Source of the DNA: Dictyostelium discoideum
Taxonomy: Eukaryota
DNA length: 64,000 bases
Assembly: GCA_000004695.1 (NCBI GenBank)
Contig: CM000152.2
Coordinates: 2,080,001-2,144,000, forward strand
Reading direction: 5' to 3'
The notes under the pieces were generated by a model. The model saw only the letters and a list, made by a program, of their open reading frames with translations, was not told the DNA's origin and did no database searches. Both the position numbers and the translations under genes were made by a program. Positions 2,844 through 59,161 of the stretch are shown one piece after another. How positions within the stretch are numbered: the first letter of the stretch is position 1; every line of letters starts with the position of its first letter.

Positions 2844-2874
<31 letters not shown>

Positions 2875-2918: not shown

Positions 2919-3325
2919 ATGATGGTTCCATCACTATCAACATCAATCTCTTCGCCCGCATTATTTAAAGTAAGAGAGAAAAAAAAAAAAAAAAAAAACA
3001 AAAAAAACAAAAAAAACAGTAACAAAAAAAAAGAAAAAAATAAAAAACTTACATTTTTTAAACTTATTATTATTATTATAGAATAGAGAAGGTGGAGAGG
3101 AAGGAAATGATGGTGGTCTTGAACAATTACAAAACCAAGTTAATGATCTAGGTGATTTAAATTTCAATGAAGAGGGTGATTACAATAATGATCAGCAACC
3201 TACAAATGAAGAGGAGGGTACAGCTGATAATGAATTAGAAAGTTTAATGTCATTAGTTAATGATAATAATAATAATAACAACAACACCAGTGGCATTGAT
3301 GATGATAATAATAATGATATTGATG

Positions 3326-4056: not shown

Positions 4057-4489
4057 AATAATAATAATAATGATAATGAAAATAATCAACACCCAATAAA
4101 CCCTGTAAATACTCAAAACACCCAACAAAATGTAACACATAGTAATAATAATAATAACAATAATAATAATAATACAGCACCACCAAATCAATGGTCAGAA
4201 TTAATTGAAAGTTTAGGATATGGTTCACAATCTGATGAACAAAAAACGTTTGGATCGACATTGGATGATTTAAATAATGCAAATAGTTGTTCAGATTTAA
4301 AGGATTTAATAGTTGATGGTATTTCAATAAATAATGAAACTAGTCCTTCCCAAAGTCAAGAAATAACAGATTTTAGTAAAATTGATAATTTAAATAAAAA
4401 TATCAATATCAATAATAATAATAATACAGATTCACAACAACCATTACCCTCAATAGATGTAAATTTTAGCCATAATAATAACAATAATA

Positions 4490-4564
<75 letters not shown>

Positions 4565-6134
4565 TACAAGATATTCAAATACCATATCACCAAAATGATC
4601 AAGATTATAATATACAAGAAGGTAACGATATTAATAATGATAATTATGAAATTAGGGTTAGTAATAACGATGATGATAATGATAGTAGTAATAATAATAA
4701 TAATAATAATAGTAAATTTCAAGAAAACTTAAATTTGTTGAATACGGGTATGGGTGGTAGAATTTGTAAAACAGATCAAAAGAAACAACTTTCTAGAACG
4801 ATTACATTTGCTGATCCATCTTCAATTCTCAGTTTTTTTGGTTCTATTCCAACTGATGAAGATCAAAATAATAATAATAATAAAAATAAAAATACTACTA
4901 CAACAACCACAACCACTAATACAACAACAACAACAACAACAACAACATCAGCATCAGCAGCAGCACAAAATAAATTAGATTTATTATCATCATTAAGTGC
5001 AGGACAATCTAGTGGTGGTGTTGGTGGTGGTAACAATGTATTAAATTCATCATCAACACCAGCAATAAAGGTTAATCATCAACATAAAGTAACAGAACAA
5101 AATAGAACATCATCAAAGATTAGTTTATCAACTATATTTCCAAAACTACCACCATTTACTAATCAACAATCACCACCAACTTTATCACCATCGAAATATT
5201 ATTATCCATTGTTACAACCTGAACCAACCACATTGATTAGAGGGTTCTCTTCTGCTGCTGATATAAATAAAAGAGGTCTAAAGAGAGCAAAGAAACCAAT
5301 GGAAATGGAGGATGTATATCTAACTCAATATCCATTAGGTGATGATCAAGATTCTCAAATTGCTTTATTCGCTATTTTCGATGGTCATTCTGGTAAAGGT
5401 TGTGCTGTTGCTGCAAAAGAAATATTTCCAAATGTATGTATAAAAAAAAAAAAATAGATATATCTATATAAAAATAAAAAAAATACATATATATTAATTA
5501 TTTTATTATTTTTTAGATTTTATTAAAATATATTAAATCAACAAAGAATGAAAATGGTGGTAAACCAATTTATGATATGAGAGGAGTATTTTTAAATGCA
5601 TTTAAAGAAGTTGATGCACAATTAAGTAAATTTGAATATGAAGGAGCAACAGCTACTGTTTGTTTAGTTTGGAGAGCAGGTCATCAAAGATTTGTACAAT
5701 CGGCGAATGTTGGTGATTCAACTGCATTCCTAAGTTATGGAAATGAAACATTGTTCCTAAGTAAAGATCATCGTGCAACTGATCCAGAGGAAATTCAAAG
5801 AATTAAAAATGATGGTATTACATTAACTGAAGGACAAACTAGAATCAATGGTTTAATGGTTAGTAGAGCATTGGGTGATCATTTCATTAAACATCTAAAT
5901 TGTGGTCTTTCTGGTGAACCTTATGTTTCACCACCAATTTCAATCACACCATTTCATTCTCATTTAATCGTTGCTTCTGATGGTCTTTGGGATGTTATTT
6001 CTGGAAATCGTGCTATGGAAATCGTTAAAGTTCAACAAACTGAAGAGAAAATGTCAAATTCTTTACTTCAATGTGCAATTGGTTCAATTAAAGCTAAAGA
6101 TAATATTTCAATTATCGTTGTAACACTTCAGTAA
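2919..6134 (+). CDS. PP2C-family Ser/Thr protein phosphatase with a long Asn/Thr-rich N-terminal low-complexity region
   Basis: Exons are 2919..2969 (MMVPSLSTSISSPALFK), 3082..5433 (contains ORF 3247..5457) and 5517..6134 (ORF 5577..6134). The introns are 2970..3081 and 5434..5516, each GTAAGA/GTATGT to TTTTAG with phase 0. The PP2C motif FAIFDGHSGKGCAVAAKE sits at the end of exon 2. Exon 3 carries the catalytic core (GATATVCLVW, SANVGDSTAFL, VSRALGDHF, ASDGLWDV). Confidence 0.8.
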
Positions 6135-23500: not shown

Positions 23501-23571
23501 TGCGTATGCTGGGAATCGAACCCAGTTCGCATCCGTGGCAGGGATGCATCATACCACTAGACCACATACGC
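23501..23571 (-). tRNA. tRNA-Gly (anticodon GCC)
   Basis: The minus-strand sequence is GCGTATGTGGTCTAGTGGTATGATGCATCCCTGCCACGGATGCGAACTGGGTTCGATTCCCAGCATACGCA. It has a 7-bp acceptor stem (GCGTATG/CATACGC), an anticodon stem CATCC/GGATG with loop CTGCCAC (U33, anticodon GCC, A37), a T-arm CTGGG-TTCGATT-CCCAG and discriminator A. A T-run follows the 3' end (plus 23490..23500). It closely resembles eukaryotic tRNA-Gly-GCC. Confidence 0.9.
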
Positions 23572-36082: not shown

Positions 36083-36400
36083 ATATATTAATTTTTAGTG
36101 GTGATGTATTAATTTATAAATTACCAGGACCAATAATTAAACCAAAAGGATTTCAAGGTGATATTAAAGAATTAGAGAATCAAATGAATTCATGTCAATA
36201 TTTAAGAACATTTTCATTATTACAATTTAGAGAGATAACACCAGAAGCAATTGGACCAGTATCAACAATGAGGTGGAATCATGATGATAATTGTTTAGCA
36301 GTTGGTTGGAAGAATAGAGGATTTTGTGTTTGGTCAGTTTATGGTTGTAAATATAACTTGTACAATACCACAAATGAGTAATGATGGTAATAATAATATC

Positions 36401-36465
<65 letters not shown>

Positions 36466-37449
36466 TAATAATAAATATTTAGAACCATGTAGAGATGGTG
36501 TTTTATCATTTAGTTGGGGATTAGAATCATATCATTTAATTTTATTATCAAATGATAATGATGATGGTGAATTTTTTCAATTTACATTTTTAAAAGCATC
36601 ATTAGCATCGAATCCAACATTAAATTATTCTGAGCGTATTATACTTCAAACAGAGGATAGATTAATGTTATTAAATTATAAAGGTAAAGAATTGGGTGAT
36701 ATTCGTTGGAAACATCTTCAAATTCCATCAGCATATTTAAATGATAATTGGCCAATTCGACATATAGCATTATCACGTGATAGAAATCAATATGCAGTTG
36801 CAGGTAAACGAGGTATCATTTTATATAATCAATTAAGTAAACGTTGGAAAATGTTTGGTGATAGAAATCAAGAGCAAGAAATTCAAAGTCTTTCATTGGC
36901 ATGGTATAAAAATGTGGTAATCGTTGCAAACTATTCCATTGAAACCACTAAAAAACATCAATTTCTATTCTTTCCAAAACAACATCTTGATAATTCCTCA
37001 TTATTATACTCTTATCAAATACCTCAAAACCATACACCACAACTATTAGATTGTAATGATATTCATTTAGTATTATTCACTCAAGAATCTTTCTTTTATT
37101 TATTTAGAGTTTTAGAACGTAATCAAAAAATTGAATTACATTTAGTTCATACATTATCAATGGCTGTACCATCAATACCTTTATCAATTTCATTATTACC
37201 ACCAATTCAAGTTTTATTAAATAATAATATTAATAATAATAGTAATAATAATATTAATAATAATATTATTAATAATAATATTATTAATAATAATATTATT
37301 ATTAATAATAATAATCAATCAAAATCATCTTTTATTTCTTCACCAATTAAATTAAATAGAAATAATAATACTAATACTAATAATAGTAATAATAATATAA
37401 CAAATAGTCCATCTTCTCAACAACAATTACAACAATTACAACAACAATT

Positions 37450-37535
<86 letters not shown>

Positions 37536-38521
37536 TACAACAACAACAATTACAACAACAAAAACAATTAGCATATTGTTTAATATTATATTCAAATGGT
37601 AGATTATGTTTAATAAATGCAGAGAATTCAATACAATGTGAATTATCAAATAATATTGAACAATATTGGTTTACAAATATTTATAGAGATAATGAATTAA
37701 TTGGTAATACATTATGGGCATATGGTAATTCAGGTATACAAGTTTGGTTTCCATTTTCATCGGAAGAAATTTTATCAAATAAAAATTTCAATCATAATAA
37801 ATCATTAAGTTTTAATAATGAAGTTTATCCAATTGGTTTTTTAAATGAATTGGGTGTAATTGTTGGATTAAGTCAAGGTATAAGTTATTCATCATGTTCA
37901 GTTTATCCAAATTATGAAATTCATATTAAAACTCATCCATTCCTTCATTCAATTTTAAAACATTTACTAGAGAGAGGTGGTGCTGAAAAAGCTTGGAATC
38001 TATCAAGTAAATTCTATACAATTCCTCATTTCACTCATTCTCTAGAGTTGTTACTTCATGAATTCATCTCTGAAACCGATGATTTAAAGAAACAATTTAA
38101 AATTAAATCACAATCAACCGGTCAATTAAGTCCTGCAGGTTTAAAATTAGAATATGTTATAAACTTTTTAAAGAAATTTCCACAATTTCCAGAGGTTGCA
38201 ATGCGTGCTACAAGAAAAATTGATGCTTCACTTTGGAGAGGTCTATATACAATCATTGGTGATCCTTTTATACTCTATCAAAAATGTTTATCAAATGGTA
38301 AAATTGAAATTGCTGCATCCTATTTAAAAATATTACAACATTTAAATACAAATTCAAATACTTCATTTCAAGATGATATTAGTAGAAAATGTGCAATTGA
38401 ATTATTAGAAATTTCTTTAGATTTTGATAATATTGATTTAGTTGGTGATTTAATTAGATTTTTACATACTTCTGATGAAGATAATGCAACAACTCCAAAA
38501 TTAAATAATAATAATAATTCA

Positions 38522-38552
<31 letters not shown>

Positions 38553-39025
38553 GTTATTATAATGATAATAATAATAATTTAAAAGATAATAATAAACCAA
38601 TTAAACCAACAATTTCAAAAGAATCAAAATTATTTTATAAACAATTAGATTTAATTTTATCAACTTATGCAAATAAATTATTAAAGAATAAACTATTAAG
38701 AAATTTTTTATTATTTTCAAGAAAAACACTTTGTGATGATTTATCAAATTGGTTAATCACTAAAAAGAGATCAACAATTCTTAGAACAGTTGAAGATTTA
38801 GATATGGCATTAAATTCAATTCATGTTCAATTTTATATAAATTTACCAATTGAACCAATTAATCCACCATTTTCATCACAAAGTTTATTAATGGTTTTCT
38901 CACCACAATCAAATGGTTTAGTTGGTAGTACAAGTAATACTGATTTTAATAATTTAAAACAATCTTTATCAATTGATTCTGAATTAGAAAATTTAAATAT
39001 TGATAATATTATTAATAATAATAAT

Positions 39026-39070
<45 letters not shown>

Positions 39071-39637
39071 CAATCATTACCATTATCAATATCACAAGAA
39101 CAACAAATGATTCAAAATTTATCACAATCACCACCAACAATGGTAACAAAGGATGAAATGATTGAATCACTTAAATCAAGAATTAATAATACACCATCAA
39201 AAGATCATCATGTTTCAAGTAATAGTAATGTTGTTAGTAGCGGTGGTGGTGGTGGTGGTGGCGGTAATGGTGGAGTTGTTAATTCTAGTAGTCAATATAA
39301 TTTTAGATCTCATCAATTTATGATTGCACCAACAACTTCAAATGAATATAGCGATCCATTCTTTTTAAAAGAATCAATTGAATCATCAATGGATGATCTT
39401 TATTATTTATTACAAGAATTAACAAATGCAAATTGTTATGAATGGGTATTGGTAATTGCTACAGTTTTATTAAATCCAGTTTTAATCTCAAAAACTTTAA
39501 AAAAAATACCAGATATTTATGAAAACTATTGTAAAATGTTATCACTTCAAAAACCAATTGGATATAATCAATTATTAAAATTTATTGAAGATTCAGTTTA
39601 TCCATTATTACAACAAAAATATTTAGATAAAAAATAA
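34897..39637 (+). pseudogene. RIC1 (Rab6 GEF complex subunit) homolog, multi-exon and conserved with human RIC1, but interrupted by two in-frame TAA codons (35763..35765 and 35880..35882) and a 1-nt frameshift near 36346..36352
   Basis: Exons are 34897..35142 (MYFTFGWPK…CWSPDSSSIAIV), 35246..35412 (TSLGYIIVYRI…), 35546..35902 (ITSNNEYIYIFTKEGYLVKSSWTGEL…IVPF…SIFG*IFENGSSAIL…RGYWLSKENSVSISLNLKHR*AAVGLK) and 36099..39637. In the last exon, frame A (…MRWNHDDNCLAVGWKNRGFCVWSVYGCK) switches to frame B (ITCTIPQMSNDG…EPCRDGVLSFSWGLESYHLILL…FQFTFLKASLASNP… to YPLLQQKYLDKK*). The introns are 35143..35245, 35413..35545 and 35903..36098. The flanks of each lesion align to human RIC1 ([108 protein letters not shown]). 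Confidence 0.65.
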
Positions 39638-40887: not shown

Positions 40888-41862
40888 ATGGGTGAACGTA
40901 AAGTTATTTCAAAATATTATCCACCAGATTTTGATCCAAGTAAAGTTGCAAAGATTAAAGTTAAAAGACCAACATTTACAAAAGTAACAACAATGTTACC
41001 AATGAGTATAAGATGTAATACATGTGGTGAATATATTGGTAGAGGTACAAAATTTAATGCAAAAAAAGAGACAGTTCAAAATGAAGATTATTTAGGTATT
41101 AAAATTTATAGATTCTTTTTACGTTGTAAAAAGTGTGCAGCAGAATTAACAATTAAAACCGATCCAAAGAATTCTGAATATGTTTGTGAATCTGGTGCAA
41201 CTAGAAACTATGAACCTTGGAAAGAAACAGATGAAGAGAAATCAAATAGAATGACAAAAGAACAAGAGGAAGAACAAGATGCAATGATTGCTCTTGAAAA
41301 TAGAACTTTAGAATCAAAACGTGAAATGGAAATGCTGGATGCCCTTGAAGAAATTAAATCTTTAAATTCTAGAAATTCTGAAATTGATACTGAACAATTA
41401 TTAGAATATAATTTACAAAAACAAGAACTTGAAGAAAAATTACAAGATGAAGAGGATGATCTTTTAGTAAAATCAATTTTTAATAATAAAAATAAATTAG
41501 AATTAAATCAAATTAATGATAATAATAGTATTAATAATAATATTGACTCTAATAAAATTAAAAGAATTGAAAATGATGATGATGATGGTGATAAATTTAA
41601 TAGTTTATTTTCAAATAATAATAAAAATAATAAAAATATTATCAATAATAATAATAATAATAATAATAATATTAATACAACCTCAATATCCAATACAATC
41701 GAAACAACACCAACAACGAATCAAAAAACATCAATTTTAGGTAATAAAGTTAAAGTAGTAATAAATAAACAAGAGGAACCAATACCGAAAAATAATAATA
41801 ATAGTGAGCCAAATTCATTTTCATCTTTTATGTCGGCTTATAGTGACGACGAAGAAGATTGA
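40888..41862 (+). CDS. Splicing factor YJU2 / CWC16 (CCDC94-like), 324 aa, single exon
   Basis: The N-terminus [20 protein letters not shown]…[52 protein letters not shown]…GATRNYEPW matches the YJU2/CCDC94 family ([20 protein letters not shown]…[21 protein letters not shown]). It has a Glu/Asn-rich tail. Confidence 0.85.
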   Translation: [324 protein letters not shown]

Positions 41863-42140
41863 TATGATAAAAAAAAAAATGAATAATAAAATTGTAATAA
41901 TATTATTTATTTAATTATATGATATAATATAATTGAATAAATAATTTATATTTCTTCTCCCAAACACACACCCACACCCCGCTATCGCAATTTTTTTTTA
42001 TTTTTTTTTTTTTTATATTTTATTTTTCAATAATCGTATCAATGTAATAATAATTAATCATTTATCGAAAGTAAACTTTTTATAATAATTCTTTAATTAA
42101 TTATTTGTGTTTTTATTTTATTTAAATTATTTTTTTTTTT

Positions 42141-42176
<36 letters not shown>

Positions 42177-42376
42177 TTTTTTTTTTTTTTGTTTTCTTTC
42201 ACACCATTTCCAAATTTGTAATAATTGATTAATTCATATTCATTGTAAAAATAAATTATTAAAAAAGTGATTTTTTGTAAAAAACATTTATTTTGAAAAA
42301 AAAAAAAAAAAAAAAAATATAATTAAACACTTCAAATAAATATCATCAAATTATAATAATTTTTTATTACTACAAT

Positions 42377-42434
<58 letters not shown>

Positions 42435-42584
42435 CTATTTTATTTTTTTTATTTTTAAAAAACTAATTTTTTTCAAAAATAAAATAAAATAAAATAAAAA
42501 AAATAAAATAAAATAAATAAAAAAAATAAAATAAAATAAAATAAAAAAAAGATAAAATAAAATAACAATAAACTTTTTTAAAAA

Positions 42585-43067
42585 ATGAATTTATCACAAG
42601 AACATGCAATAAACCAAAATTTACATAAAAATCAAAAAAATGAAGAAAAGATAGAAAAAAAAACAATTAACAAAGATGGTAGAGGTCAAATGAATTATGA
42701 TGGTGAAGAAGGACAAGGAGAAAAATCAAGATTCCAAAAAATGGTTGAAAATGAAAAAATTGAAGAACCACAACAAAAAGATGAAAATATTCCAAATACA
42801 GATGTAATAGAAAGAAAAGAAGTTGGTGTAATTGAAAGAATAAATAGTGAAGATGTACCAATTTTAATGACAGATAATGCTACAGATTATAAAGTTTTAC
42901 AACACAATCTTAAAAAAGGTAAAGTTTCAAAGAAAAGTAAAGAACAAATTGAACAAATCTCTAAACAAGAAGAAAATGATATGTTGGAATATTTAAAAAA
43001 TTATAAATCAAATGAAGAATTTACAATTCAATTAGAAGATTTATTAAGTTTTGAAACTTATTGTTTG

Positions 43068-43104
<37 letters not shown>

Positions 43105-43432
43105 TTTTTAAAATACTAATTTAATTTTTATTTATTTATTTTATTTATTTTATTTATTTTCTTAAATAATAATAATAATAAAAAAAAGTTTCAAGAGATG
43201 AATTACATTTATTATATAGAGAATTTAAAACAATTTCAAAAAGTGGTATGTTTATGTCAAAAGAGGATTTTATAAGTAAATTAACACCATTCTCAAGAAA
43301 TGCTGATTTAACAATTTCATTAATGAATGCAATTGATCGTAATGGTGATCAAAAAATTGCATTTCCAGAATTTGTTCAAGCATTATCAATAATGTGTAGA
43401 GGTACTAAAAAAGAAAGATTAAGATGTAAGTG

Positions 43433-43472
<40 letters not shown>

Positions 43473-43939
43473 TAATTAATAATTTTTTATTTAATAATTA
43501 TTAATAAAATTATTTTTTTATTTTTTTTATTATTATTTTAATTTAATTTTTATTTTTTTAAAAAAAAGTTACATTTGAAATTTGTGATTTTAATGGTGAT
43601 TCATTAGTATCAAGAGATGAAGTTTATTCAACAGTTAAAGCAATTTCTGATATTTTTTCAAAGTTTGGATATTCAAAAGATAAATTTGGTGATCCATCAG
43701 AAGCTGTAGATTCAATATTTTCAAGTGGTTTAACAACTAATGGTATTTATTTACATAATAAAAAAGAATTAACATTAAATGAATTTTTAGAAAGAGGTGA
43801 ATTAAATCCTGATTTATCAAAATGTTTTGGAATGTTTGATTATTTTTATTTAAAATTTATTGGTCAAATTGATTTATTAGTAAATATTATTTTAAAAAAA
43901 AAAACTTTTTTTTATAAAAAAAAAAAAAAAAAAAAATAA
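42585..43939 (+). CDS. EF-hand calcium-sensor protein of the NCS / KChIP type with a 158-aa Glu/Lys/Asn-rich N-terminal extension, three exons
   Basis: Exon 1 is 42585..43062 (ORF 42585..43073 up to …LEDLLSFETY + T). Exon 2 is 43189..43425 (F-SRDELHLLYREFKTISKSGMFMSKEDFISKL…FPEFVQALSIMCRGTKKERLR, ending in GTAAGT). Exon 3 is 43569..43879 or runs on to the stop at 43939 (FTFEICDFNGDSLVSRDEVYSTVKAISDIF…ELTLNEFLERGELNPDLSKCFGMFDYF…). Intron 1 is 43063..43188. It aligns with KChIP/NCS-1 ([41 protein letters not shown]…EEM…VKAIYDM…LDEFLESC). No in-frame ATG exists upstream of 43248 within the exon-2 ORF, so an upstream exon is required. Confidence 0.6.
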
Positions 43940-44004
43940 TAATTAATTTATTAATACTAATTTATCAATTTTTTTTTTTAAAGTTTAAAGATAAAGAAAT
44001 TAAT

Positions 44005-46750
44005 ATGAATGGTCAATTAACAAAAATTAAACCAAAAACAATTTTTAATTTTAATATTTCACATAGAAGAACTTTATCATTAAGAGATGGATTTTTAATT
44101 GTTTATAAAAAAAAGAAATTTAAACATGATGAAGATAAACCTTCAAAAGTTATATTTTTACCTGGTTCAACTGTTAAAGTTGTAGTTGGTAGTCAACCAA
44201 GTAAAAAAAAGAAATTTTTAAGTAAAAAATTTCATAATTATTATGGATTTAGAGTTACAAAAGGAAATGTAAAAATTTTAAAAATAATTTTATTATTTTT
44301 TTTTTTAGTATATAAATTATTAAAATAATTACTAATTTTTTTTTTTTTTATTTTTTTTTTATTTTTTTTTTATTATTATTGTTATTATTATTAATTTTTT
44401 TATAAATTAGTATAATAGATTTTTTTTAATGGAAAATAGAGATGAAGCATTAAATTGGGTAAATGCAATTAGATTTCATTCTAGACAAGGATTTAGATTT
44501 CAATCATTTTCAAAAGTTAGATCGAATATTAGTGTTGAATGGTTTATTAATGGTTCATCATATTATAATGAATTAGCAGAAACAATTAGAAGAGCAAAAC
44601 ATGAAATATTTATAACAGGTTGGTGGGTTAGTCCTTATGTTTATCTTCAAAGGGATAATGGTATTGAAAATATGGAAAAATCAAGATTAGATAGAATTTT
44701 AACAGAGAAAGCCAAAGAAGGTGTAAAAGTTTATGTATTAATGTGGAATGAAACAAATTTAGGTGTTCAATTGGGTAGTAGACATGCAAAGAATTGGTTA
44801 GAAGGTTGTCATTCAAATATTCATGTAATTAGACATCCAAAACGTTATCCACTCTCTTGGAGTCATCATCAAAAAAATGCAATTATTGATCAACAGATTG
44901 CTTTTGTTGGTGGTATAGATATTTGTTTGATGAGATATGAAACTAGTAAATTTCAATTGACCGATGATCAAGGTAAAAGATTCCCTGGAAAAGATTATGG
45001 TAATTTATTAGGTACTGTCATTAGAACTGGTGATCCTAAAAAAGATCAATTCAATCGTAGAGAATGTCCAAGAATGCCATGGCATGATGTTCATACTAAA
45101 ATAGTTGGTCCATCTGCAAAAGATGTTGCAAGTAATTTCATTCAACGTTGGAATCATGCAATCTATGTTGAGAGATCAAATAGATTTCAACCAATTTTAG
45201 TTCCAAAGAATTACACTGGTTTACCATCTGATGATGCAAAACCTGATAAATGGAAAAATCTTGTTTCTAATATTAGAAAAGGTTTCTCTCATGTTTCTTA
45301 TGGTAGAGAAAAGCCAACTCATTATCAAAGAGCTGGTGATAATCCAAAAGTTAGATCACATACAAGACAAGGTGCTTTTGGTTTACAATCTGATCAAATT
45401 GATAATAAAATTGATAAACAAAAAAATAATTCAACAAATTCTGAAAATTCTGAAAATTCTTATTCAGAATTTGATGAAGAAGATGAAGAAGGTAATCAAG
45501 AAGAAGAAGATGAAGATGAATTTGATGAATTTGAAAAAGATGAAAATCAAAAACAAGAAAATTCAAAAATTCCATTTAATAATAAACCATCAGATGCTGG
45601 TGGTTTAAAATCAAAAAATTATAAAAATAATAATAATAATAATATAATTGAATCATTAAAAGATGAAGAAAGTTTTGAATTACCAGGTACACCAAAAATT
45701 GATTTAAATAATGATAAATTATTAAAATCAATTTATCATTTATCTTCAAATATGTCAGAAAATAGTTGTGTTGTTCAAATGGTTAGATCAATTTGTCCAT
45801 GGTCAGCAGGTACTGATGTTGAAGATTCATGTTATAAAGCTTATTTAGGTTTAATTAAAAATGCTCAACATTTTATTTATATTCAAAATTTATTTTTTAT
45901 TTCAAGTTGTGGTTCAAAATTACCAAAGAATCGTATAGCATTAGCAATTTTAAATAGAGTTAGAAGAGCAATAACTTTAAAAGAAAAGTTTAGAGTTATT
46001 ATAATGGTACCAATTAGTCCATCTGGTGATCTTGCATTAGCATCCTCAAGAATGATTATTGGTTGGACTAATAGAACAATAAGTCAAGGTGGTCAATCAA
46101 TTTTAGAATTATTAAAAAATGAATTTCCTGATGTTGATTTAGATCAATATATTTCATTCAATTCAATTAGACAATGGGAAGCTAATGGTGATAGAATTTT
46201 CACTGAACAAATCTATGTACATAGTAAAGTTTTAATAGTTGATGATCGTGTAGCTGTAATTGGTAGTTGTAATATTAATGATAGAAGTATGATGGGTTCT
46301 CGTGATTCAGAATTGGCAGTAGTCGTTTCTGATCAAAGTAAACTATTAATTACAATGAATGGTAAACCTTTTAAAGTTGGTAAATTCCCTCATACACTTA
46401 GAGTTGGTCTTTGGAAAACTCATTTAAATTTAACTGATTCTGAAATTTCATCAATAATAGATCCAATAACTGATAATGCTTTTATTAATATTTGGAGAAA
46501 AACTGCTAGAAATAATTCAATCATTTATAAAGAAGTATTTGGTGATTGTATTTTAGAAAATCAAAGAAGACTTGGTATTGTTCAAAAAAAATATATTCCA
46601 AAAACAAATGAATTAATTGTTCAATTATCACAAATTCAAGGTGTTTTAATTGAATATCCACTAGATATGTTTTGTGAAAGTAATTTATTTAATGAACAAG
46701 TTGGAATTTTTACTGCTGAATCTTATGTTGATGTTTCAATTTTTACTTAA
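44005..46750 (+). CDS. Phospholipase D (PH domain plus two HKD catalytic motifs; no PX domain visible), two exons, about 866 aa
   Basis: Exon 1 is 44005..44268 (MNGQLTKIKPKTIFNFNISHRRTLSLRDGFLIVYKKKKFKHDEDKPSKVIFLPGSTVKVVVGS…YGFRVTKGN). The intron runs 44269..44410 (GTAAAA…AAATTAG). Exon 2 is 44411..46750 (YNRFFLMENRDEALNWVNAIRFHS, completing the PH domain). HKD1 reads HHQKNAIIDQQIAFVGGIDICLMRYE and HKD2 reads HSKVLIVDDRVAVIGSCNINDRSM. The frame is also open upstream to an acceptor at 43983/43984, which is compatible with splicing from the upstream EF-hand exon (see findings). It may be the smallest of the Dictyostelium PLD paralogs; the symbol is not assigned. Confidence 0.8.
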
Positions 46751-46798
46751 ACAAAAAAAAAAAAAAAAAAAAAAAAATAAAATAATTTTTTATTACAT

Positions 46799-47010
46799 AT
46801 TGTGAAAATCATTCAAATCCATTTAAAATATTTGTAATTACAAAAAAGTGAGCAAACTTGGATAGTTCTTACAATAAATATTGTGAAAATAATTCAAAGT
46901 TGTACACTTTTTAAAATTTGAAAATTGTTCATATTATTTTTATATTAGTCCCATTATAAAATATTTGTAGTTACAAAAAAAGTGCTCAAACTTGAATGAT
47001 TCTTACAATA
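46799..47010. repeat. Duplicated roughly 75-80-bp unit (46799..46875 and 46880..47010, the second copy with an insertion) in the 342-bp gap between two convergent genes
   Basis: attgtgaaaat(c/a)attcaaa is followed by aaaatatttgta(a/g)ttacaaaaaa(a)gtg(a/c)(g/t)caaacttg(g/a)at(a/g)(g/a)ttcttacaata. The second copy has a 57-bp insertion gttgtacactttttaaaatttgaaaattgttcat…cccattat. Base composition is GC-richer than the surrounding intergenic DNA. Confidence 0.7.
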
Positions 47011-47092
47011 TTTATTTAAATTATTTAAATTATTTATTTTTTATTTATTTAAATTGATTTTGATTATTTACTTTTATTTTTTTTTTTTTTTT

Positions 47093-50000
47093 TTAAAGTG
47101 TATTTTTTTTTGAAAAACCTCTTTTAAAAAATTTATAATAAATTAATCTTGAAGTTGTACTATGTCTATATAAAACGATACCAAGTAAAATTACTAAAAT
47201 AACAAAAAGGAAAGCACCACCAATTATAATACCAACTAATTGTGGAGTTGTTAAACCTTTTTTATTTGAAGAACAAATTGAATTTGGATCATCACTATTT
47301 GTTGATCTTGAATCAACTAAAACACTAAAATTTGGATCTAAACTAATTTCTCTTTTATAATTTGGAATTTCCATTGCAATAAATGATTTTGAATTACTAG
47401 AATTATTACTATCATACATATTAATTGGTATTTGAGTTATTGTTGAAATTAAACCATCAATAATTGAACGTTTTAAAAATCTACCTAATAAAATGATATT
47501 ATCAATTTTAACTTGAATAAAACTTGAATCACCATTATCACCAAATTGAGAAGATGAGCAAATATCATCAGTTTTACTAGTTTCAAGTGATGCTGAAATT
47601 AATAGTTGTAAAGTATTTAAATTTGATTTAAATTCATAATGATCCATATCAATACTATATTTAACAGTATTTGGTTCAATTGAAATATTTGAATTTGCAA
47701 ATGTTATAATTTTATATTCATGATATCTTACAATTTTTACAATAATATTAGTTTTCAAATTATTAACAGTATCACTAATAATTGAAGTATTAAATTGAAA
47801 ATGATCATTATCAGTTTTAATAAAACTCCAATTTGAGAAAATAAATTCTCTAACTAATTTACCATTGAAATCAATTTCTTTAAGTGAATAAACTACAATT
47901 AAACTTTTATATTCACCTTCATAATTGAAATTAACATTTGGTGCATTTGGATCAATTGTACCATTTGAACCAGAACTTGTTGATAAACAATCTAAACCTG
48001 TATTTGGTGCAATACAAAGACATGTAAAATCAGATTTACAAGTACCTCTCGATGGGCCACCACAACTTGGTATACCTGGACATTGTTTTGGTGTAGTAGT
48101 TGGTGTATTAGTTGGATTAGGAGTTATTGAACCATCGGCTGGAATAGTTAAAGGATAATAATCTGAAATTAAACCATCCGATGTTTGAATTGCAATTTCA
48201 ATTTTATTTTCAACACCAAAACTTTTAATTTGATCAGTTATAATTTGTCTATCAGAGAATGAAATAAAATTTTTAATTGTTACTGATGATGAACCACTTG
48301 TAATAAATTTAATAATTAAATTTGAAGTCAAATAACCCATTCTAAAACCATTAATTGTAATTAAACCATTATTATAATTTGCGTTTAGAATTTCTGGTTT
48401 CTCTTCGATCGTATTATTAATATAATAGGTTTTACCTAAAGATTTTAAACTATCAGTACTAAAACCAATTACATTTAAACAATTATCAGTTACACCAAAT
48501 ATTGAAAGTGTAATACCATCTGGATAACCAAAAGAGAATGGAATCATTGCATTCATTGAATAACTATAGGATCCATCATCATTTATTGATTTCATTGTTT
48601 GATTTGATGTAATAACTGATAAACTTGATGAAGCTAAATAAACAACTGGATCATGTCTTTGAGAGATACCATAGGAAAAAGAACTTGTTATAACATTAAA
48701 TGTTATACTTTTAAAAAGTCCATCATTGGTTTTTATTAATGGTGAAACAGTGAAATCAATAAGATTTGGTGGATTTGGTTGACAATTTTGTTTACCACCA
48801 ATTGTAGTTATTGATAATGCAGTTAAATTGACTTTCATAAATGGATTAACTTTTGTAACCGATGGATATTCACTAATATGACCTTGTTTATCTACTAACC
48901 AAGCATAGGCAATACGATAAGTTTGAGCTCTATCATTAGGTGTAATTGGAATATTTAAATGTTTAAGTGAATCTCCTTTTGAATTTAAAGTGAAATTCCA
49001 ACCCAATGGATCTAAATCACTAATAATAGTAATTATACCATAATCGAAACCATTAATTGAATCTATTATATAAAATGAAAATGTAATATTAATTGTTTCT
49101 GTTGTTGGAATTTGGACTGGACTTGCTAAATATGAATAATAATCAATAATTGGTGGCATAATATCAGAGGTTGAAGATTTAACTCTTAGTTCTGCACTTG
49201 AATTAAAAACTGAATATAAAAGTACATTATCAAATTGAATTGGTGAAATCATATATGATATTGGACCAGTGAAAACATTTGCAGGTATATTAATTGTAAA
49301 CTCTGAATAATTTGTAATTGGATTAAATTTACTAATAATTGCTTGATCAGTTTCATCACGGAAATAATCATTACCTTTTTGAGCTTGATAAACAATACGG
49401 AAATTTGTTGCCAATGCAAATGAATAATTTGGAATTACTGGTTCAGTTTTAAGATACATTATTACAGTTTTTGGGGAATTTGTAACATCTAAATCATTTT
49501 CACTGAAATAAATATCTTTAATAAAATCTAAACTACCAATTAATGGTGGAATATATGGTACACTTGTAATAATATCCAAATTACTATTATAAACATCATA
49601 TTGTCGAAATAATTTTGAATTACCAACTCTATCAATTAATGTGAGTTTAACAGCAGCAAATGCAACACCAATCACTGCTTTTGGAATTGTAATTCTATAA
49701 GTTCCATTATAAATTGTACCTTGAATTAAATCATTTGGAGAAAATTGATAAATACATGCAACTGAACATAAATTTACAGATATTGAACCAACACCACTAT
49801 CTTTATCACCAACACTAACAACAATTGAAAAAGATGATCCTTTTTCTTCATAACCATAATAATATAAAATTGGTGTTTGATTATCAGTGAAACCACTATC
49901 TGTTGGTGTAAAAACTTTATCAAAATAAATATCATTATTTGATAAACCAAAATAAACTGATAAACTAATTGATTGTTGGAGATATCTAAGAGTTGGCATT

Positions 50001-50272
50001 TCAAATTGATAATTAATTAAATTATTTGTAACATTAAAAACTCCAAATGGATAATTAATTGATTGTCTTATACTTGAAAATTGATCATTAATTAAAACAA
50101 TTGGTCCTAAATATGGTGAACTAAATAAATATGAAATACCTGAATAATTTATATCTTTAATAACTTTACCTCCAAAATTATTTGGTATCATTTCATTTTC
50201 TATTTTTTTTAATTATTTAAATTAAATTAATAAAAAAAATGAAAAAAAATAAAAAAAATAAAAAAATATTAA

Positions 50273-52449: not shown

Positions 52450-55400
52450 TTATTTTTCAATATCACTATCAGGTGATAATTTCATTAAAACTCTTTTATG
52501 ATAATCAATTAAAGAATTTGCCATTGATGAATCACCAGATAATTCTAATTGTTTAATTAAATCATCCATTACAATGGATTCTTTAAAGATTTGAAGTGAA
52601 TGAACTAAAGTTCTTTCAGCAGCTAATTTTAGAGGTAAATTAGTTCTTTCTTTTAATCTATTCATAGTTGGTACGACAATATCACGTAAATATTGTCTTG
52701 ATAATTGTTGATTTGATTTACAGAAACGTTTAATAACATTGAGAGCACTAATTGATACGGAAGATGATTGATCACCAATGAGATGACAAATGGAAGGTAC
52801 TAAATCCTTTGCATAGGTTAAAGGCGAAGCAACTAAAATAGCTTCAGCCAAATAAGCAGAGGATTCACGAATTGGACCTTTTTCATCACGACAATCGGTT
52901 TGAATGATTTTAATGATGGTTGGCATATTTGGTGATTGAGAATCGATTAAATTCTTACCAGATGCTTTGAAAATTTCACCCAATGCCAATGATTTACCAT
53001 AACGAGAGAGTACTGATTGAGAAGGTGAGATGAGATTGGTTTTAATGAATTGATTCAATTCAGTGAGAGAAGTAAAACATTTTGAAGAGGCACCAATAGT
53101 TTGAGCGACCATTGATCTGAGATCATCGGAAGGTTGATAAAGGAAGTCCACAATGGTGGCGATTGCTTTATCGAGTGTAGCTTGTTCAACTTTTGGTTTC
53201 TTTTCAAAAATGGATTGAAGTGCTCTAAGTTTACTTTCTTGTGAAATACTATCGGCTGTACTAATACCAGTGATTAATGAATTTACCAATTGATCAACTG
53301 AAGAACTTAATGTCATTAAAAGACCCAAAGCAGAGGCTGCATTGGTTCTAACATTTTTATGAGAATCAGAGAGACATTTAATAAAGGTTGGTTGAAGTTG
53401 ATGAAGGAAAATCTTCATACTTGCTGGTGATTTACTAATGAGTAATGATAAAGTTTGAAGGATTGCAGATTTAACTTGCCATGGGAATTTATCACCAATT
53501 ACCAAAATCAATGGACCAGTGATTTGCATAACAAATGGTTTGAGAGCATCGGCACTAGTATGATTGATAACGGTTCTAAGGGTATTGGTAGCTTGTTCTC
53601 TTTGATCACTTGTACCATACATAAGACCAGAGATAAGAACTGGTAAAACTGAAGCCAAACCTTTTGGTAAACAAAAGCCTGGAATAGTTGAAACCTCTTC
53701 ATAGGTTTCATTAACCAACAATTGAATACCTTTTTGGAAGACTGGTAAATAGGTAAGATTATCTTTTTTCAAAGATTTAGTGATGAAACCCAAAGCATTA
53801 TTTGCTGCTTGTTGTACCAATGCATCTGGATCATTAAATAATGAAAGTAATGAAAGTAATAATTCCTCTGGATATTCAGTGACCATGGTATTACCATTAT
53901 AGAATTCACCAATGAGTTCACAAGCACCCAAACGAATATTTGGTAATCTAATTTCAGTTTGTTCAATTAACAATCCAATTAAAGTATCCCAACCTTGTTC
54001 ATCGATTGATTTACAAATTGAAACGGCGGCTTCTTTAATTTCTTTAGCATTTGAAATAGTATTTGGATTTGTGAAAGATTCAATAAGTGATGGAATAATA
54101 GTTGAAAGATGAACGTAAAGACCTTCACCAGCATCAGCGGCAAGTGATGATAAAGCAGTGACATTACTTGTTGAAATAGGTCTACTTAAAAGTTTTGGAA
54201 TAAGTACAGGCAATACAATACTACTTCTAACTAAAATAACTTGACGAAGACCATCCAAAGCATAACCAGCAAGATCCTTATTGTTGGAATTATCCAAGAG
54301 TTGAATAAGTTGTGGTAAAATTTCATTACTAGCTTTTGAACCAAAAGTATGATAGAGATGATCGAAAGCTTTAGCGGCTGCCTCTCTAACATCAATGAGT
54401 GGATCACATAATGCTTTGGTGATACAAGTTACAACACTTGAAAGGTATGGAAGTAATTGAGTCTTTGCAGAGGAAATAACTTCACTAAGACCAATACAAA
54501 CACCTTGTCTAGTTTCTTCGAGTTCTGATCTAAGACCACGTTCAAGAATTGGTAAAATCTCTGGTAAAATACGATCACTAAGTTTACTAACAATATCACC
54601 CAAAGTTTTAGCGGAAATTTGTCTCTTTTCAACATTATTTGAACCAATGGAACTAATAATCATTTCAATAAGAGTTGGTAAAATCTCACGAAGTGTCTTT
54701 GGTGTATTACTAACAATATATTTCCAAATTAATAATACCTTTTGACGAACTGATGAATTATTATCAAATCTCATCATATACAATGATGAAAGAATACGAC
54801 CTAATCTTTCTTTACCTAAAATCTTTTGAATATCATTACCACTTGAACCTGGTTCATCATCATCATCATCTTTAGCATTATAAGAACTATTATTTGATTG
54901 GACTTCTTGAGCGGTTGTACCTGCTAATTTGAATAATAAATCACCAAATAATTGAACACAAGATAAACGAATTCTCCAATTTTCATGGAATAATACTTTC
55001 TCTAAGGCTGGAACAATCACTTCAATACCTGTTACTGCAAATTGTAAAACAATCGATTGACCACATCTCATACAAACTTCACGAACTGGATCAGAATCAT
55101 CAGCTAAACCTTTCAAAACTTGTGGTAAAACTTTTGGAAGATATGGAAGGAAAAGATCACCCAAAGAAATTGGTGTAAAAATAAAGATTGATAAAATACC
55201 TTCTCTAACATGTGGACGTGGTGAATTGGTCATTGCTAACAATTCATTGATTAATGAATTGAATCTACTAATATCTAATGAAGCTAAAACCTCTGATAAA
55301 CCTTGAGCAGCACCACTTCTTTCGACAGCACCTTGATCAGATTTAACGGTTTCCAATAACCAAGGAATAAGAGTTGAGAAATTCTCTTCACCCATACCAC

Positions 55401-58400
55401 GAACTAATAAACCAAGTGCACGTGCACAAATGGCTCTAACCTCTGGAATTGGATCTAAAAGTACGGTTTTCATAACTGGCATTAAAATATTTAAATAAGG
55501 TACTAAATCTTTTGGTTCAGTTAATGAACAAAGATTACCAACGATTTGACAAGACATTTTCTTTAATTCACTACTTCTCTCTTTAAGAGTTCTCTCTAAA
55601 ATTGGAAGTAATAAAGAGAGTGAAGCTGGATCAATTGTATGAACGTAATTGGTTGATAAAAGATTCTCTAATAATTCTTTTGAATGAATTTCTGGATCAT
55701 CATAGGTTTGAAGTAATAATGGTACATGAATTTGAATTTCTGGATTTCTAATGACTGAACCAATATGAGAGAGAGCTTCTTTAGCTGCTTCTTGAACTTT
55801 GGTATGAGTATCATTGAGAACATAGGTAAGTTTTGGTACAATAGTTGGTAAACATGATGAGAGTTGTTTTGGTGCACAAAAAGCCATAGCACCCAATAAT
55901 TCAATTGAGCCTTCTTTGGTTCTCCATGAACGATCATCCAATGCTTTTAATAGTGCTGGTAAAACGATTTTAACACCATGACCACTAAGTTGTGACATGA
56001 TAGCTTTGGCAGTATCTGCTGTAGCATCACGAACCTCACTAACATTATCACCAAAACAAACTAAAAGTTTTGGAAGAATATGAATAATGTATGGTTCGAA
56101 AACACGACCAATTGTATTACAAAGACATTCGAAAGCAAATAAAGCACCTTGACGACTAGTTGGATGTTTTTTATCTTCGATATAGGATTGAAGAGTATCG
56201 AGAATTGAATAGTTTTTCAAAGAACCAATACCTAAACCCTTGACAGAACCTGCTAAACCAAATGCTGCACCACGTCTATCTGCATAATTACCACTACTAT
56301 TCTTTAATTTCTCTAATAACATTGGAATTAAACGATCACCTTGTTTCTTAAATGATGGAATCAATTGAGCGATACATTTTGAAATACCAACTTGAACACT
56401 CTCTGATGGAATTGATAAAGCATCCACTAGCTTATCAATTACAATTGAAACTTTTGGATTTGAAGCATCCATATGTTTTGCCAAAGCACCCATATAGACG
56501 ACGACATTTGCACGAATTGAATCCTCTTCACCTGTTCCATTATCTGGACGTGCCAAGAAAGCTTCAAAAGTTGCCAACAATTCACCAGAGAATTGAACAC
56601 CTTGTTGATTAATAATTGACATACCAGTTGATACAAACTCTTGAACAACCTCTTCCTTTGGATCGAATAAACCACGCTCAATGATTTTAGTGAATAATGA
56701 TTTCAATACCTCTGGTTCAACGATTGCATTACCTAAACCCGATAAAGCAGTGGCTACGGAAATTCTAAATTTACTAGTGATTGGAGTTTCTCTAATTTCA
56801 TCTGGATAATTTTGTTCATAAATCTCGAAAAGATTATCAACAATCTCTGGAATCATATGAGTATGACAAGTGGCAGCCTCTTTAATTGCCAATGCATTGA
56901 TTTTTCTAGTTTCAGAGTTTACATTAAAAGTTGAATCTGATAAAAGTTTCATGAAATCCTCTGGTAATTGAGTTGGTTGATTTGTAGCCAACCAAATCTT
57001 CTCTGCCAATGCAGAGGTATTTGCATCATGATTATCGAATCTTGCAAACCAAAGGCTACCAATATATTTATCTTCCCAAACGAATGATGGTGAATAAATG
57101 GAAGGAATTTTCTCAATTGCTTGTAAGCAAATCGAACGAACTTGAACATGTTTAGAGATAATACCCTCCATTAATTCACCAATATCACTAGTTTCAACAC
57201 CTTCAATCAATTGGAAAATTGTATTTCTAGCTTGAGCTTCTAAACGTGAATTGGTTGAAACCACAATAATCAAAGAAGAAATCATTGAACCTCTTGGATA
57301 GGCTTGACCTTGAGCGGTATGTTTTTGAATGATCTCCATTGAAATCTCTTGAATTGTAAAAGAGATTGTAGTCTCTAAACCATTCTTTATAATTGGCCAA
57401 AAGTAATTAAAAGCGAAACCACTCAAAGCCTCTTTTGCAATGGATTCTCTAATATGAGTTAAAATCTTTTGAATGAAACCTAAAATTTGAATCTCTGATA
57501 AAGTTGGACGATAATAAATATTATTGATAATGTAAATGTAATGACGTGCAAATGAACGATCCAATTTGAAACGTGATGGTACGCAACAAATTAACTTTTC
57601 AAATACTTGAGTGAATTGATGATTGGTAATTTCATGTTTCATCAATTGTAATAATGCCACTATAATTGGTGACATAAATTCACCAACAAATTGAGGATTT
57701 GAACTTGACTTGGCCATAGTTTGACAGGTATCCATTGCTAAATGTAAACGATCGATAACATCTTGAACATCTTTACGAATTACAGCTTGAGCAGCCAATT
57801 GTTTTTGTCTTTCTTTCTCTTGTTTCTCTAATTCACCAGATTGAATCTTTTTCTTTTCTTCAATTCTCTTTCTAGACTCTTCATCACGTTGTTCCTCGGC
57901 TGTCTTTGGCTTAACTTTACGATCATTTCTAGATTCAACGAGTTGTTCTTGTTTTTCAACAAATAATTCAGTTGGTAGCGTATGATAGATTGACCATTGT
58001 TGTTGAGTAATTGCTAAAACTGGTTCATAAGATAATGCTTTTACCATTAATTTAACCAATTCTTCATTCAACAATGGTACATTATAATTCATTAAACCAT
58101 TGATAGCTTGTTGGAATGCTTGTTGATAAGATTTATTTTTCTTTTGATTTAAACCTTTTTCAAAAATATATTTACTAATTTCAATAGCATTTGAACTTAA
58201 AGTTGTATTTACATCATTTTGAATCAATGATGAAACACGTTTCCAATTATAATTTATAAATGGATGATAACAAATTAATGATAACATTGGATATAATTCA
58301 CTTTTTATATTTTTTGATAAAATTGATCTAAATGCAATTAAATAATTCTTTTTATTTGAAATTGTAGTTGTTGTAGTGGTTGTTGATTCAACATTTGAAT

Positions 58401-59161
58401 TAATTATTTGTGGTGTTATAATTAAAGAATCATCAAATAAAATTGTAGAAAATTCAATTAATAATTGATTTGATAATAATGGATAATCAATATCAACAGA
58501 ATCATTTCTTGATAAAATAGATCTAATTTTAATTGCAGAATGTTTTGAAACTGACCATTGACTATGAAGTAAACAATTTAATACAGATGAATAAAGTGGT
58601 GATTTGTCATTTAATTTAATTGATGGAAAAGATTTAACTCTAAGGAATAATGTTAATAATAAATCGATTGCATGATCTTTTTTTGAGGTTCTTTGAATGA
58701 AACCATCAGTATGAAGGAATGATGTTGATGCATATAGATTTGAGATTGTAGTTTTATCAGTTGAATATTTGGTGAAAATATCATTCTTTGGTACACCAGT
58801 GGTTGTAATCAATGATAACATATAATGTAAGGATGCTGTTGTTGTTGATGGATCACAAGTTTTAGCATTCTTTACATTCTTTAAGATTGTATTAATAGTC
58901 TCTGTAAAACCATTAATAATTTGAATCACTTTTTTATTTGTACCATTTGCTTCGGGTCCTAATGATTTTGAAAGTGATAAAATAACTTGTCCCTTTATAA
59001 TATCATCATCATTCTTTAAACTATTTGTAATAATTTTTATAGTTTGTTCTGGTAATTCTTCAACCATTTTCATAACTTTACCTAATAATTTAAATCCTTT
59101 ATTTCTATTATCTTTATTTACTAAATTATATATTAAAAATAATTTAAAATAATTAATAAAT

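Follow-up and report, generated by a model that had tools for sequence, protein, structure and literature searches.

In a 64,000-nt stretch of Dictyostelium discoideum DNA (hereafter the window; contig CM000152.2 of assembly GCA_000004695.1, positions 2,080,001 to 2,144,000), a coding region for KChIP/NCS-like EF-hands is followed closely on the same strand by one for a phospholipase D (PLD), which raises the question of whether the two are neighboring genes or parts of a single one. The initial annotation described a separate EF-hand gene lying head-to-tail with the PLD, and recognized that its third exon could instead be spliced in frame to the PH exon to give an EF-hand sensor fused to a PX-less PLD. 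The fusion proved to be the reference protein. Joining the five exons listed in Table 1 yields a 1216-residue product in which 1216 of 1216 residues are identical to XP_641653.1 / EAL67680.1 / UniRef100_Q54WR4 (PLDB_DICDI); the entry XP_641653.1 is titled "phospholipase D1 [Dictyostelium discoideum AX4]", and since nothing in it differs from the window product, both represent the same gene. This exact-sequence look-up covered a collection of ~15 billion proteins, among which neither product of the two-gene model has an entry, be it the 361-aa EF-hand protein with a poly-Lys tail or the 867-aa PLD beginning at Met44005. We are highly confident that positions 42585-46750 (+) hold one five-exon gene, pldB, and that the 104-nt gap at 43880-43983 is one of its four introns, an ordinary spliceosomal one rather than an intergenic spacer.

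Table 1. Features of the pldB locus and of its product (nucleotide positions are those of the window; a slash marks the exon end)
Feature	Nucleotides	Strand	Residues	Remarks
Spacer, Saf4/Yju2 gene to pldB ATG	41863..42584	+		722 nt
Exon 1	42585..43062	+	1-159	plus first base of codon 160; donor ATT/GTTTGT, phase 1
Disordered E/K-rich N-terminus			about 1-150	
Four-EF-hand KChIP/NCS-type domain			about 153-342	
Intron 1	43063..43188	+		126 nt, 95% A+T; F160 codon split in ETY-F-SRDEL
Exon 2	43189..43425	+	160-239	degenerate EF1 and canonical EF2
EF2 loop DRNGDQKIAFPE	43335-43370	+		canonical
Intron 2	43426..43568	+		143 nt, 97% A+T, phase 1
Exon 3	43569..43879	+	239-342	donor TTA/GTAAAT, phase 0
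EF3 loop DFNGDSLVSRDE	43586-43621	+		canonical
Intron 3	43880..43983	+		104 nt, 95% A+T, phase 0; GTAAAT donor, T10 tract, AAAG acceptor
TACTAAT in intron 3	43955-43961	+		22 nt 5' of acceptor
Exon 4	43984..44268	+	343-437	linker FKDKEIN and N-terminal three quarters of PH
Linker				7 residues, between NCS-like and PH domains
Intron 4	44269..44410	+		142 nt, 96% A+T, phase 0, within PH domain
Exon 5	44411..46750	+	438-1216	plus stop; PH C-terminal helix through conserved C-terminus
PLD1/2-type catalytic region				two HKD motifs, acidic insert between
HKD1 HQKNAIID	44867-44890	+	590-597	exon 5
Acidic, Asn-rich insert	about 45377-45739	+		exon 5, between HKD1 and HKD2
HKD2 HSKVLIVD	46220-46243	+	1041-1048	exon 5

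The splice sites at the junction are those proposed from the sequence. The third exon ends in the phase 0 donor GATTTATTA/GTAAAT at 43879/43880, the T10-AAAG/TTTAAAGAT acceptor follows in the same phase at 43983/43984, and from there the frame (FKDKEINMNGQLTKIKPK...) stays open until the stop codon at 46748-46750, with PH and the two HKD motifs included. The predicted N-terminal exon also exists: its open reading frame runs from 42585 to 43073, the exon itself leaves it at a GTTTGT donor and joins 43189, and the intron lies, as foreseen, inside the F/SRDEL motif, with the phenylalanine codon split in phase 1 and the product again equal to the reference protein. Its size alone needs correction, from 158 aa to the 159 full codons and one base given in Table 1. 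This exon encodes an N-terminal region in which E (16%), K (13%), N, and Q are abundant, together with the start of the NCS-like domain, and exon 3 encodes, besides EF3, the degenerate EF4 and, C-terminal to it, the conserved helix CFGMFDYFYLKFIGQIDLL. Upstream, the spacer contains (AAAAT)n-like repeats as well as long tracts of poly(T), and presumably comprises the promoter and 5' UTR region of pldB; Saf4_Yju2 is also the upstream neighbor in D. firmibasis and D. purpureum. The branch-site-like motif TACTAAT occurs 26 times in the window against 16.8 expected, a marginal enrichment (3 of 100 shuffles reach 26); intron 3 is the only place where it has a suitable position, so that its support for an intron is weak at best. 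A+T content was dropped as an argument for intron over spacer, as the introns contain 95-97% A+T and the spacers of this genome are extremely A+T-rich as well.

To support two genes, one can point to a read-through frame that stays open for 19 codons past the exon 3 donor before a stop, ending in VNIILKKKTFFYKKKKKKK as initially described, and to an ATG located 21 nt past the acceptor, at 44005, where a PX-less PLD with its own promoter could start. A comparison of dictyostelid ortholog architectures, suggested along with the initial annotation, speaks against both elements: the intron 3 junction is conserved, and the EF-hand, PH, and PLD parts are joined. Intron 3 interrupts the same codon boundary in phase 0 in D. 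firmibasis (77 nt), D. dimigraforme (204 nt), D. purpureum (63 nt), and P. violaceum (64 nt), and lies within one codon of the D. discoideum position in T. lacteum. The gap thus measures 63-104 nt in most species, and DNA identity between orthologs reaches the GT and picks up again at the AG, while the interior varies in length and sequence. It is most unlikely that a spacer of 63-64 nt would hold both the 3' end of one gene and the promoter of the next; the actual spacer in front of pldB measures 722 nt. Other introns in the gene show a mixed pattern of conservation: intron 1 is found at the same position in each of the five other dictyostelid loci compared, intron 2 is absent from Tieghemostelium lacteum, where EF2 and EF3 share a single exon, and intron 4 is missing from D. 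purpureum, P. violaceum, and T. lacteum.

The proposed start codon fares no better. Met44005, which is residue M350 within the pldB product, is replaced by Leu in four orthologs (D. purpureum, P. violaceum, T. lacteum, and P0011), so that the protein cannot start at this position of the PH exon; for D. purpureum and P. violaceum, a check placed the following Met 101-103 residues further on, in the last PH helix. The seven codons 5' of it are nevertheless conserved as protein (FKDKEIN, FRDQEVN, FKDRDVN, FRNREIK). Conversely, the tails that translation past the donor would produce measure 3-22 aa and bear no relation to one another across species. Because the exact database match is accompanied by this cross-species conservation, the in-frame EF/PH junction cannot be put down to chance.

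Outside these species, the search with the full-length query, complemented by an exhaustive representative search, retrieved homologs in which a single molecule comprises all the domains. Complete Trinity ORFs with EF-hand, PH, and PLD together come from transcriptome assemblies of Clastostelium recurvatum (P0051, 1234 aa, with PLDc), Protostelium nocturnum, and Paramoeba atlantica; an environmental JGI contig (L006, 3274 nt) contains a single uninterrupted ORF (47-3262) encoding EF-hand, PH, and PLD; and gene models from Pelomyxa, Balamuthia, and Cavenderia likewise combine the three on one protein. A homolog query with the EF-PH fragment returned no match and an alignment query a single KChIP4, and both missed the protein itself, which marks a limit of the search and not an absence of homologs. 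The Cavenderia protein P0071 shares only ~27% identity in the EF-PH region and was therefore taken as a paralog; it suggests that PLD paralogs retain a degenerate version of the EF module. Together, these homologs suggest an ancestral EF-hand-PH-PLD layout with a wide distribution in Amoebozoa, including Dictyostelia, protosteloid amoebae, Archamoebae, and Discosea. A full-text literature search for an "EF-hand PLD" class reported from Amoebozoa or protists retrieved nothing relevant, and the searchable literature contained no statement of such an ancestral layout.

One annotation seems to favor separate genes: in Heterostelium album, the ortholog is split into an "EF-hand domain-containing protein" of 297 aa and a "phospholipase D1" of 1147 aa. 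However, the break falls between EF2 and EF3, inside the NCS domain and not at the EF/PH junction, and EF3, EF4, PH, and PLD stay joined; the split is therefore an annotation artefact. Among the ortholog annotations, the H. album model is probably wrong, as is that of D. purpureum, in which EF3 is mis-spliced. Taken together, a KChIP/NCS-like gene with a poly-Lys tail next to an independently transcribed PLD has so little probability that we consider the two-gene alternative effectively excluded.

A single gene could still give rise to a minor second product if intron 3 were retained, or the transcript polyadenylated prematurely in the A-rich part of this intron, so as to yield a stand-alone EF-hand protein of ~361 aa beside PldB. 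The long A run at 43897-43937 within this intron and the open frame up to the stop codon would permit it, but the read-through tail is unconserved even in close relatives, shrinking to 3 aa in D. dimigraforme and D. purpureum, and the protein collection contains no such protein. Poly-Lys encoded by poly(A) is, moreover, generally expected to stall ribosomes and lead to degradation via ribosome quality control. We consider such a product very unlikely.

The in-frame splice between the EF-hand and PH exons is thus real, although not novel, as pldB is already annotated and published. Direct support from D. discoideum for joining 43879 to 43984 comes from the reference annotation and from a preprint in which "the PldB open reading frame" (cDNA or genomic source unstated) was cloned and expressed in full length and as fragments (10.1101/2024.07.08.602473). 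The same work terms PldB a PLD1/2 homolog, regards it as a producer of phosphatidic acid, locates the full-length protein at the plasma membrane, and shows that it reverts a pldB-null phenotype (10.1101/2024.07.08.602473). It also describes N-terminal EF-hand-like motifs, a PH domain at 346-464, and a catalytic C-terminus, in agreement with the domain boundaries of the five-exon product (10.1101/2024.07.08.602473). The combination of a calcium sensor with a PLD, initially described as an architecture unknown from the classic PX-PH PLDs, is accordingly already on record in the reference protein and in the 2024 preprint (10.1101/2024.07.08.602473). Given that pldB is a studied gene (quorum sensing, adhesion, migration, membrane diffusion), the fusion has little discovery value; the comparative analysis, in turn, provides a clean argument for the correctness of the pldB reference model.

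Domain searches support the assignment of the protein's parts. Pfam detects the PH domain at residues 350-460, N-terminal to the catalytic core (28.8 bits; cut-off 25.1), PLDc over two stretches (51.7 bits; cut-off 21.9), and PLDc_2 (51 bits), and the polypeptide bears the two HxKxxxxD (HKD) motifs that characterize the PLD superfamily. The Pfam EF-hand match remains below threshold (24.4 bits against a curated cut-off of 25.4), and a PX domain gave no match at E<=0.1 in the Pfam search of the 1216-aa product. The identification as KChIP/NCS-like holds at the level of both sequence and modeled structure: in phmmer, the best matches of residues 150-341 are KChIP1 (1s6c; E=1.4e-20, query 4-177) and NCS-1 (2.4e-17), and Foldseek returned these same two proteins as the best structural matches of the AlphaFold model, with target-normalised TM-scores of 0.73-0.76. 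This model of residues 150-475 (pLDDT 79.8, pTM 0.79) places a helix at 324-343, extending to the exon 3/4 junction, ahead of a PH beta-sandwich that closes with a C-terminal helix; since its input alignment comprised 8 sequences, the predicted domain arrangement is tentative. PldB thus exhibits the compact ~180-residue four-EF-hand fold with a C-terminal helix that is typical of NCS/KChIP proteins. Members of the NCS family proper are small, free-standing and N-myristoylated; the N-terminus of PldB (MNLSQ) has no Gly at position 2, and N-myristoylation of its NCS-like domain is impossible because of the internal position of this domain in a 1216-aa enzyme.

Analyzing the four EF-hands individually, we noted agreement with D-x-[DNS]-x-[DNSG]-x6-[ED] in the loops of EF2 and EF3. 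Dictyostelid orthologs preserve both loops, the invariant positions being D209, N211, D213, and E220 in EF2 and E256 in EF3. EF1 has no canonical loop; in EF4 there is an insertion, and the ligand residues are missing. Judged from their canonical 12-residue loops, EF2 and EF3 probably bind Ca2+. The NCS-like and PH domains, joined by a conserved helix, would probably form one membrane-targeting and regulatory unit, which might position or gate the HKD core, and this core would in turn generate phosphatidic acid at the plasma membrane. Tentatively, and with a little under even confidence, we propose that the KChIP/NCS-like module functions as a Ca2+ switch and gates the membrane binding or activity of PldB jointly with the PH domain. 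If so, PLD1/2-type enzymes of Amoebozoa would be Ca2+-regulated via EF-hands, a third solution beside PX-PH and C2, and Ca2+ transients in chemotaxis or quorum sensing would be tied directly to phosphatidic acid production.

The module may, on the other hand, have lost Ca2+ sensing and persist within the fusion purely as a scaffold, either structural or for protein binding. The NCS/KChIP family offers a parallel in those of its EF-hand sites that do not bind Ca2+, and the degenerate EF1 and EF4, the subthreshold Pfam scores, and the retention of the domain without canonical loops in Cavenderia P0071 and Clastostelium P0034 would all be consistent with such a role, as would the fact that Ca2+ dependence of PldB is unreported in the accessible literature. 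However, every canonical ligand position is filled in the EF2 and EF3 loops, which are conserved across dictyostelid orthologs, and the EF3 loop is still canonical in most of the distant homologs examined. We regard the scaffold role as a serious yet somewhat doubtful alternative to the Ca2+ switch.

Compared with known systems, PldB belongs to the same subfamily as mammalian PLD1 and PLD2, yeast Spo14, and plant PLD-zeta, in which the PH domain also directly precedes a two-HKD core and an insert of variable length separates the catalytic halves. In the PX-PH-HKD enzymes of animals, fungi, and plants (zeta), a PX domain occupies the position where PldB has its NCS/KChIP-like domain. This domain shares with KChIP1-4 and NCS-1/frequenin the ~180-residue fold, the degenerate EF1, and the C-terminal helix following EF4; it differs in EF4, which has an insertion and no canonical ligands, whereas EF2 is canonical. 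Furthermore, KChIP and NCS proteins are free subunits, while the PldB module is internal and fused to PH and PLD; it is a domain of an enzyme and not a member of the free-sensor family. The plant C2 PLDs (alpha, beta, gamma, delta) are HKD PLDs in which an N-terminal Ca2+-binding module replaces PX-PH. This module is a C2 domain rather than EF-hands and comes without PH; Ca2+ dependence has been demonstrated for the plant enzymes. PldB similarly carries a predicted N-terminal Ca2+ module, here built of EF-hands and followed by PH. Phospholipase C-delta, with the order PH, EF-hands, catalytic X/Y, and C2, resembles PldB in carrying a PH and an EF-hand domain N-terminal to the catalytic core; the two domains stand in the opposite order in PldB, and the catalytic fold and chemistry are unrelated.

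Joining the five exons of pldB yields a 3651-nt reading frame (1216 codons), the product of which is identical, by exact-sequence look-up, to EAL67680.1 / XP_641653.1 / UniRef100_Q54WR4, named "phospholipase D1 [Dictyostelium discoideum AX4]" and "Phospholipase D B ... PLDB_DICDI". This match identifies the window as D. discoideum DNA and the proposed fusion as the pldB reference model. The look-up, among ~15 billion proteins, found neither a free-standing EF-hand protein of 361 aa nor a PLD of 867 aa that begins at Met44005. A Pfam scan of PldB identified a PH domain (residues 350-460) and two PLDc motifs, together with an EF-hand match at 204-226 that lies slightly below the cut-off (24.4 versus 25.4 bits), and detected no PX domain. 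pldB is one gene encoding one protein, in which an NCS-like domain replaces PX, the PH domain comes immediately after it, and a PLD core with two HKD motifs follows. The initial annotation, which envisaged an EF-hand gene and a PLD gene possibly joined by an in-frame splice, is thus confirmed in its observation and partly supported in its interpretation: the splice is real, with a product identical to the database protein and a junction common to dictyostelid orthologs, but the two-gene framing is wrong, and the architecture presented there as unknown is PLDB_DICDI itself, the EF-hand-PLD fusion being already known as pldB.

Direct reading of region 42000-47500, together with an ORF listing, located all the sequence features originally described at this locus (see table). 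Removal of intron 1 restores the sequence ...ETY-F-SRDEL..., placing this intron within the F/SRDEL motif as proposed. Intron 3 comprises 104 nt with 95% A+T, and translation past the exon 3 donor indeed gives the anticipated poly-Lys tail, VNIILKKKTFFYKKKKKKK followed by a stop.

Features of pldB and neighbouring genes (window coordinates; slashes mark splice junctions)
Feature	Position	Strand	Detail	Basis
First-exon ATG ORF	42585..43073	+		ORF listing
Intron 1 donor	43062/43063	+	ATT/GTTTGT	sequence
Intron 1 acceptor	43188/43189	+	AAAG/TT	sequence
Intron 2 donor	43425/43426	+	AGAT/GTAAGT	sequence
Intron 2 acceptor	43568/43569	+		sequence
Intron 3 donor	43879/43880	+	GATTTATTA/GTAAAT	sequence
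Intron 3 acceptor	43983/43984	+	T10-AAAG/TTTAAAGAT	sequence
Intron 4	44269-44410	+	within PH domain	sequence
RIC1 homolog	36302-39637	+		
Saf4/Yju2 splicing factor	40888-41862	+		
ComC-like protein	47093-50191	-	DUF7034/DUF7035/supersandwich; convergent with pldB	
GCN1 homolog	52450-59073	-		
tRNA-Gly(GCC)	23501-23571	-		

Comparing domain architectures among dictyostelid PLDs, as originally suggested, showed that the PldB layout recurs in full-length orthologs from six named species (D. citrinum, D. dimigraforme, D. firmibasis, D. purpureum, Polysphondylium violaceum, and Tieghemostelium lacteum) and one EukProt species. Their alignment is gap-free over the exon 3/4 junction (CFGMFDYF.../F[KR][DN]...G.LTKI.P.T). 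We fetched five of the corresponding loci (all named species except D. citrinum) and mapped the proteins onto the DNA. Intron 3 occupies the identical codon boundary, in phase 0, in D. firmibasis (77 nt), D. dimigraforme (204 nt), D. purpureum (63 nt), and P. violaceum (64 nt), and in T. lacteum (GTAAAT...TTAG) it lies within one codon of this position. Intron 2 is missing in T. lacteum, and intron 4 in D. purpureum, P. violaceum, and T. lacteum. At intron 3, the aligned DNA is conserved up to the GT and again from the AG, with an interior variable in length and sequence. The D. dimigraforme intron (4446-4649 of its locus) is enlarged by a ~100-nt (CT)n microsatellite, and the exons on either side have exactly unchanged lengths.

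If this segment were instead an intergenic spacer, a 3' end and a promoter would both have to fit within 63-64 nt, which we consider most unlikely; the true spacer 5' of pldB measures 722 nt. At the position of Met44005, the orthologs from D. purpureum, P. violaceum, and T. lacteum, as well as P0011, have Leu, while the seven codons 5' of it are kept at the protein level among orthologs. For D. purpureum and P. violaceum, no Met occurs past the junction until 101-103 residues on, in the last PH-domain helix. Read-through tails among orthologs span 3-22 residues and are mutually unrelated. The short spacer, the non-conserved Met44005 behind conserved codons, and the unrelated tails thus identify the segment as an intron.

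Beyond dictyostelids, the EF-PH fragment was searched exhaustively against 1.84 billion representative proteins, and matches were followed by Pfam scans, name look-ups, and BLASTP. Single proteins that combine all three domain types (EF-hand, PH, PLDc) are encoded by complete Trinity transcript ORFs of Clastostelium recurvatum (P0051), come from the transcriptomes of Protostelium nocturnum and Paramoeba atlantica, are given by gene models in Pelomyxa schiedti, Balamuthia mandrillaris, and Cavenderia fasciculata, and are encoded on environmental contigs. On one such contig (3274 nt), a single unbroken ORF (47-3262) gives, on translation, exactly P0029, an EF-hand-PH-PLD protein of 1071 aa. For each of P0029, P0051, P0058, and P0087, BLASTP gave a single alignment that begins in the EF domain, continues into the PH domain, and covers the entire query. 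In several amoebozoan species, one transcript assembly or one continuous ORF holds the fusion, and the distribution of these homologs argues that it is old and widespread in Amoebozoa. Proteins with many tandem EF-hand-pair units (P0013-P0028; 1200-3000 aa, 6-13 matched stretches) score above most true EF-PH-PLD homologs in this search.

Two ortholog annotations appear faulty. The Heterostelium album ortholog is annotated as an "EF-hand domain-containing protein" (P0055; PPL_07880, 297 aa) and a "phospholipase D1" (P0041; 1147 aa), with consecutive accessions (EFA79462, EFA79461) and a break that separates EF2 from EF3 within the NCS-like domain (query positions 88 and 101); this split is almost certainly an annotation artefact. 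The D. purpureum model P0009 (DICPUDRAFT_149141) lacks 13 residues of EF3, and the genome encodes ...TFEICDFNNDSLVSKEEV past an upstream TTTAG acceptor in intron 2 (~3716-3823 of the locus), suggesting that the model uses the wrong acceptor and that the EF3 loop is probably intact.

Gene order around pldB (Yju2, pldB, ComC-like) is shared with D. firmibasis and D. dimigraforme, and in D. purpureum Yos1 and Yju2 also lie upstream. T-homopolymer runs of ~50-60 nt and an (AAAAT)n-like repeat precede the pldB ATG (42120-42190, 42370-42430, 42480-42560); such sequences are typical of Dictyostelium promoter regions. The interval from the pldB stop to the ComC-like gene contains a structured repeat (46794-47016), less A+T-rich than usual, with two direct ~65-nt copies 133-134 nt apart plus inverted arms. 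Its 21-mer ATATTGTGAAAATMATTCAAA has three matches (0.22 expected) and none elsewhere in the window, and a long, imperfect hairpin forms from 46873-47016 whichever strand is folded (MFE -29.5 kcal/mol, z = -4.6, 0/200 shuffles as stable). Candidate identities for the repeat, which has no Rfam match, are a small palindromic repeat element, a shared 3'-end/terminator structure, or a non-coding RNA.

The originally proposed KChIP/NCS-like assignment holds for the whole fold: with PldB residues 150-341, E-values are 1.4e-20 for KChIP1, ~1e-20 to 1e-18 for the other KChIPs, and 2.4e-17 for NCS-1. In an AlphaFold2 model of residues 150-475 (8-sequence alignment; mean pLDDT 79.8, pTM 0.79), the EF domain is all-helical, and its long helix 324-343 stops at the exon 3/4 junction, followed by a PH-type beta-sandwich and C-terminal helix. 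Foldseek ranks KChIP1 (1s1e) and NCS-1 highest against this model (target-normalised TM-scores 0.73-0.76). Of the four EF-hands, EF1 is degenerate and EF4 interrupted; the EF2 (DRNGDQKIAFPE) and EF3 (DFNGDSLVSRDE) loops have canonical patterns kept in dictyostelid orthologs, that of EF3 also in most distant homologs.

A preprint (10.1101/2024.07.08.602473) describes PldB as a PLD1/2 homolog. Its authors cloned the PldB open reading frame, as well as fragments of it, behind mScarlet-I: the full-length protein localises to the plasma membrane and reverts a pldB-null effect, binding is weak for fragment 1-464, and fragment 1-346 is cytosolic. Localisation to the plasma membrane was shown there to require several regions, with cooperation between the EF region and the PH domain. 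Ca2+ binding at the predicted EF2 and EF3 sites may change the conformation of the NCS-like domain, which could be passed via the conserved CFG[ML]F.YF helix and short linker and would alter membrane engagement of the PH domain and catalytic core. Without PX, PldB stands apart from the PX-PH PLDs; with the NCS/KChIP family its module shares the fold, here as an internal domain without a myristoylation site.
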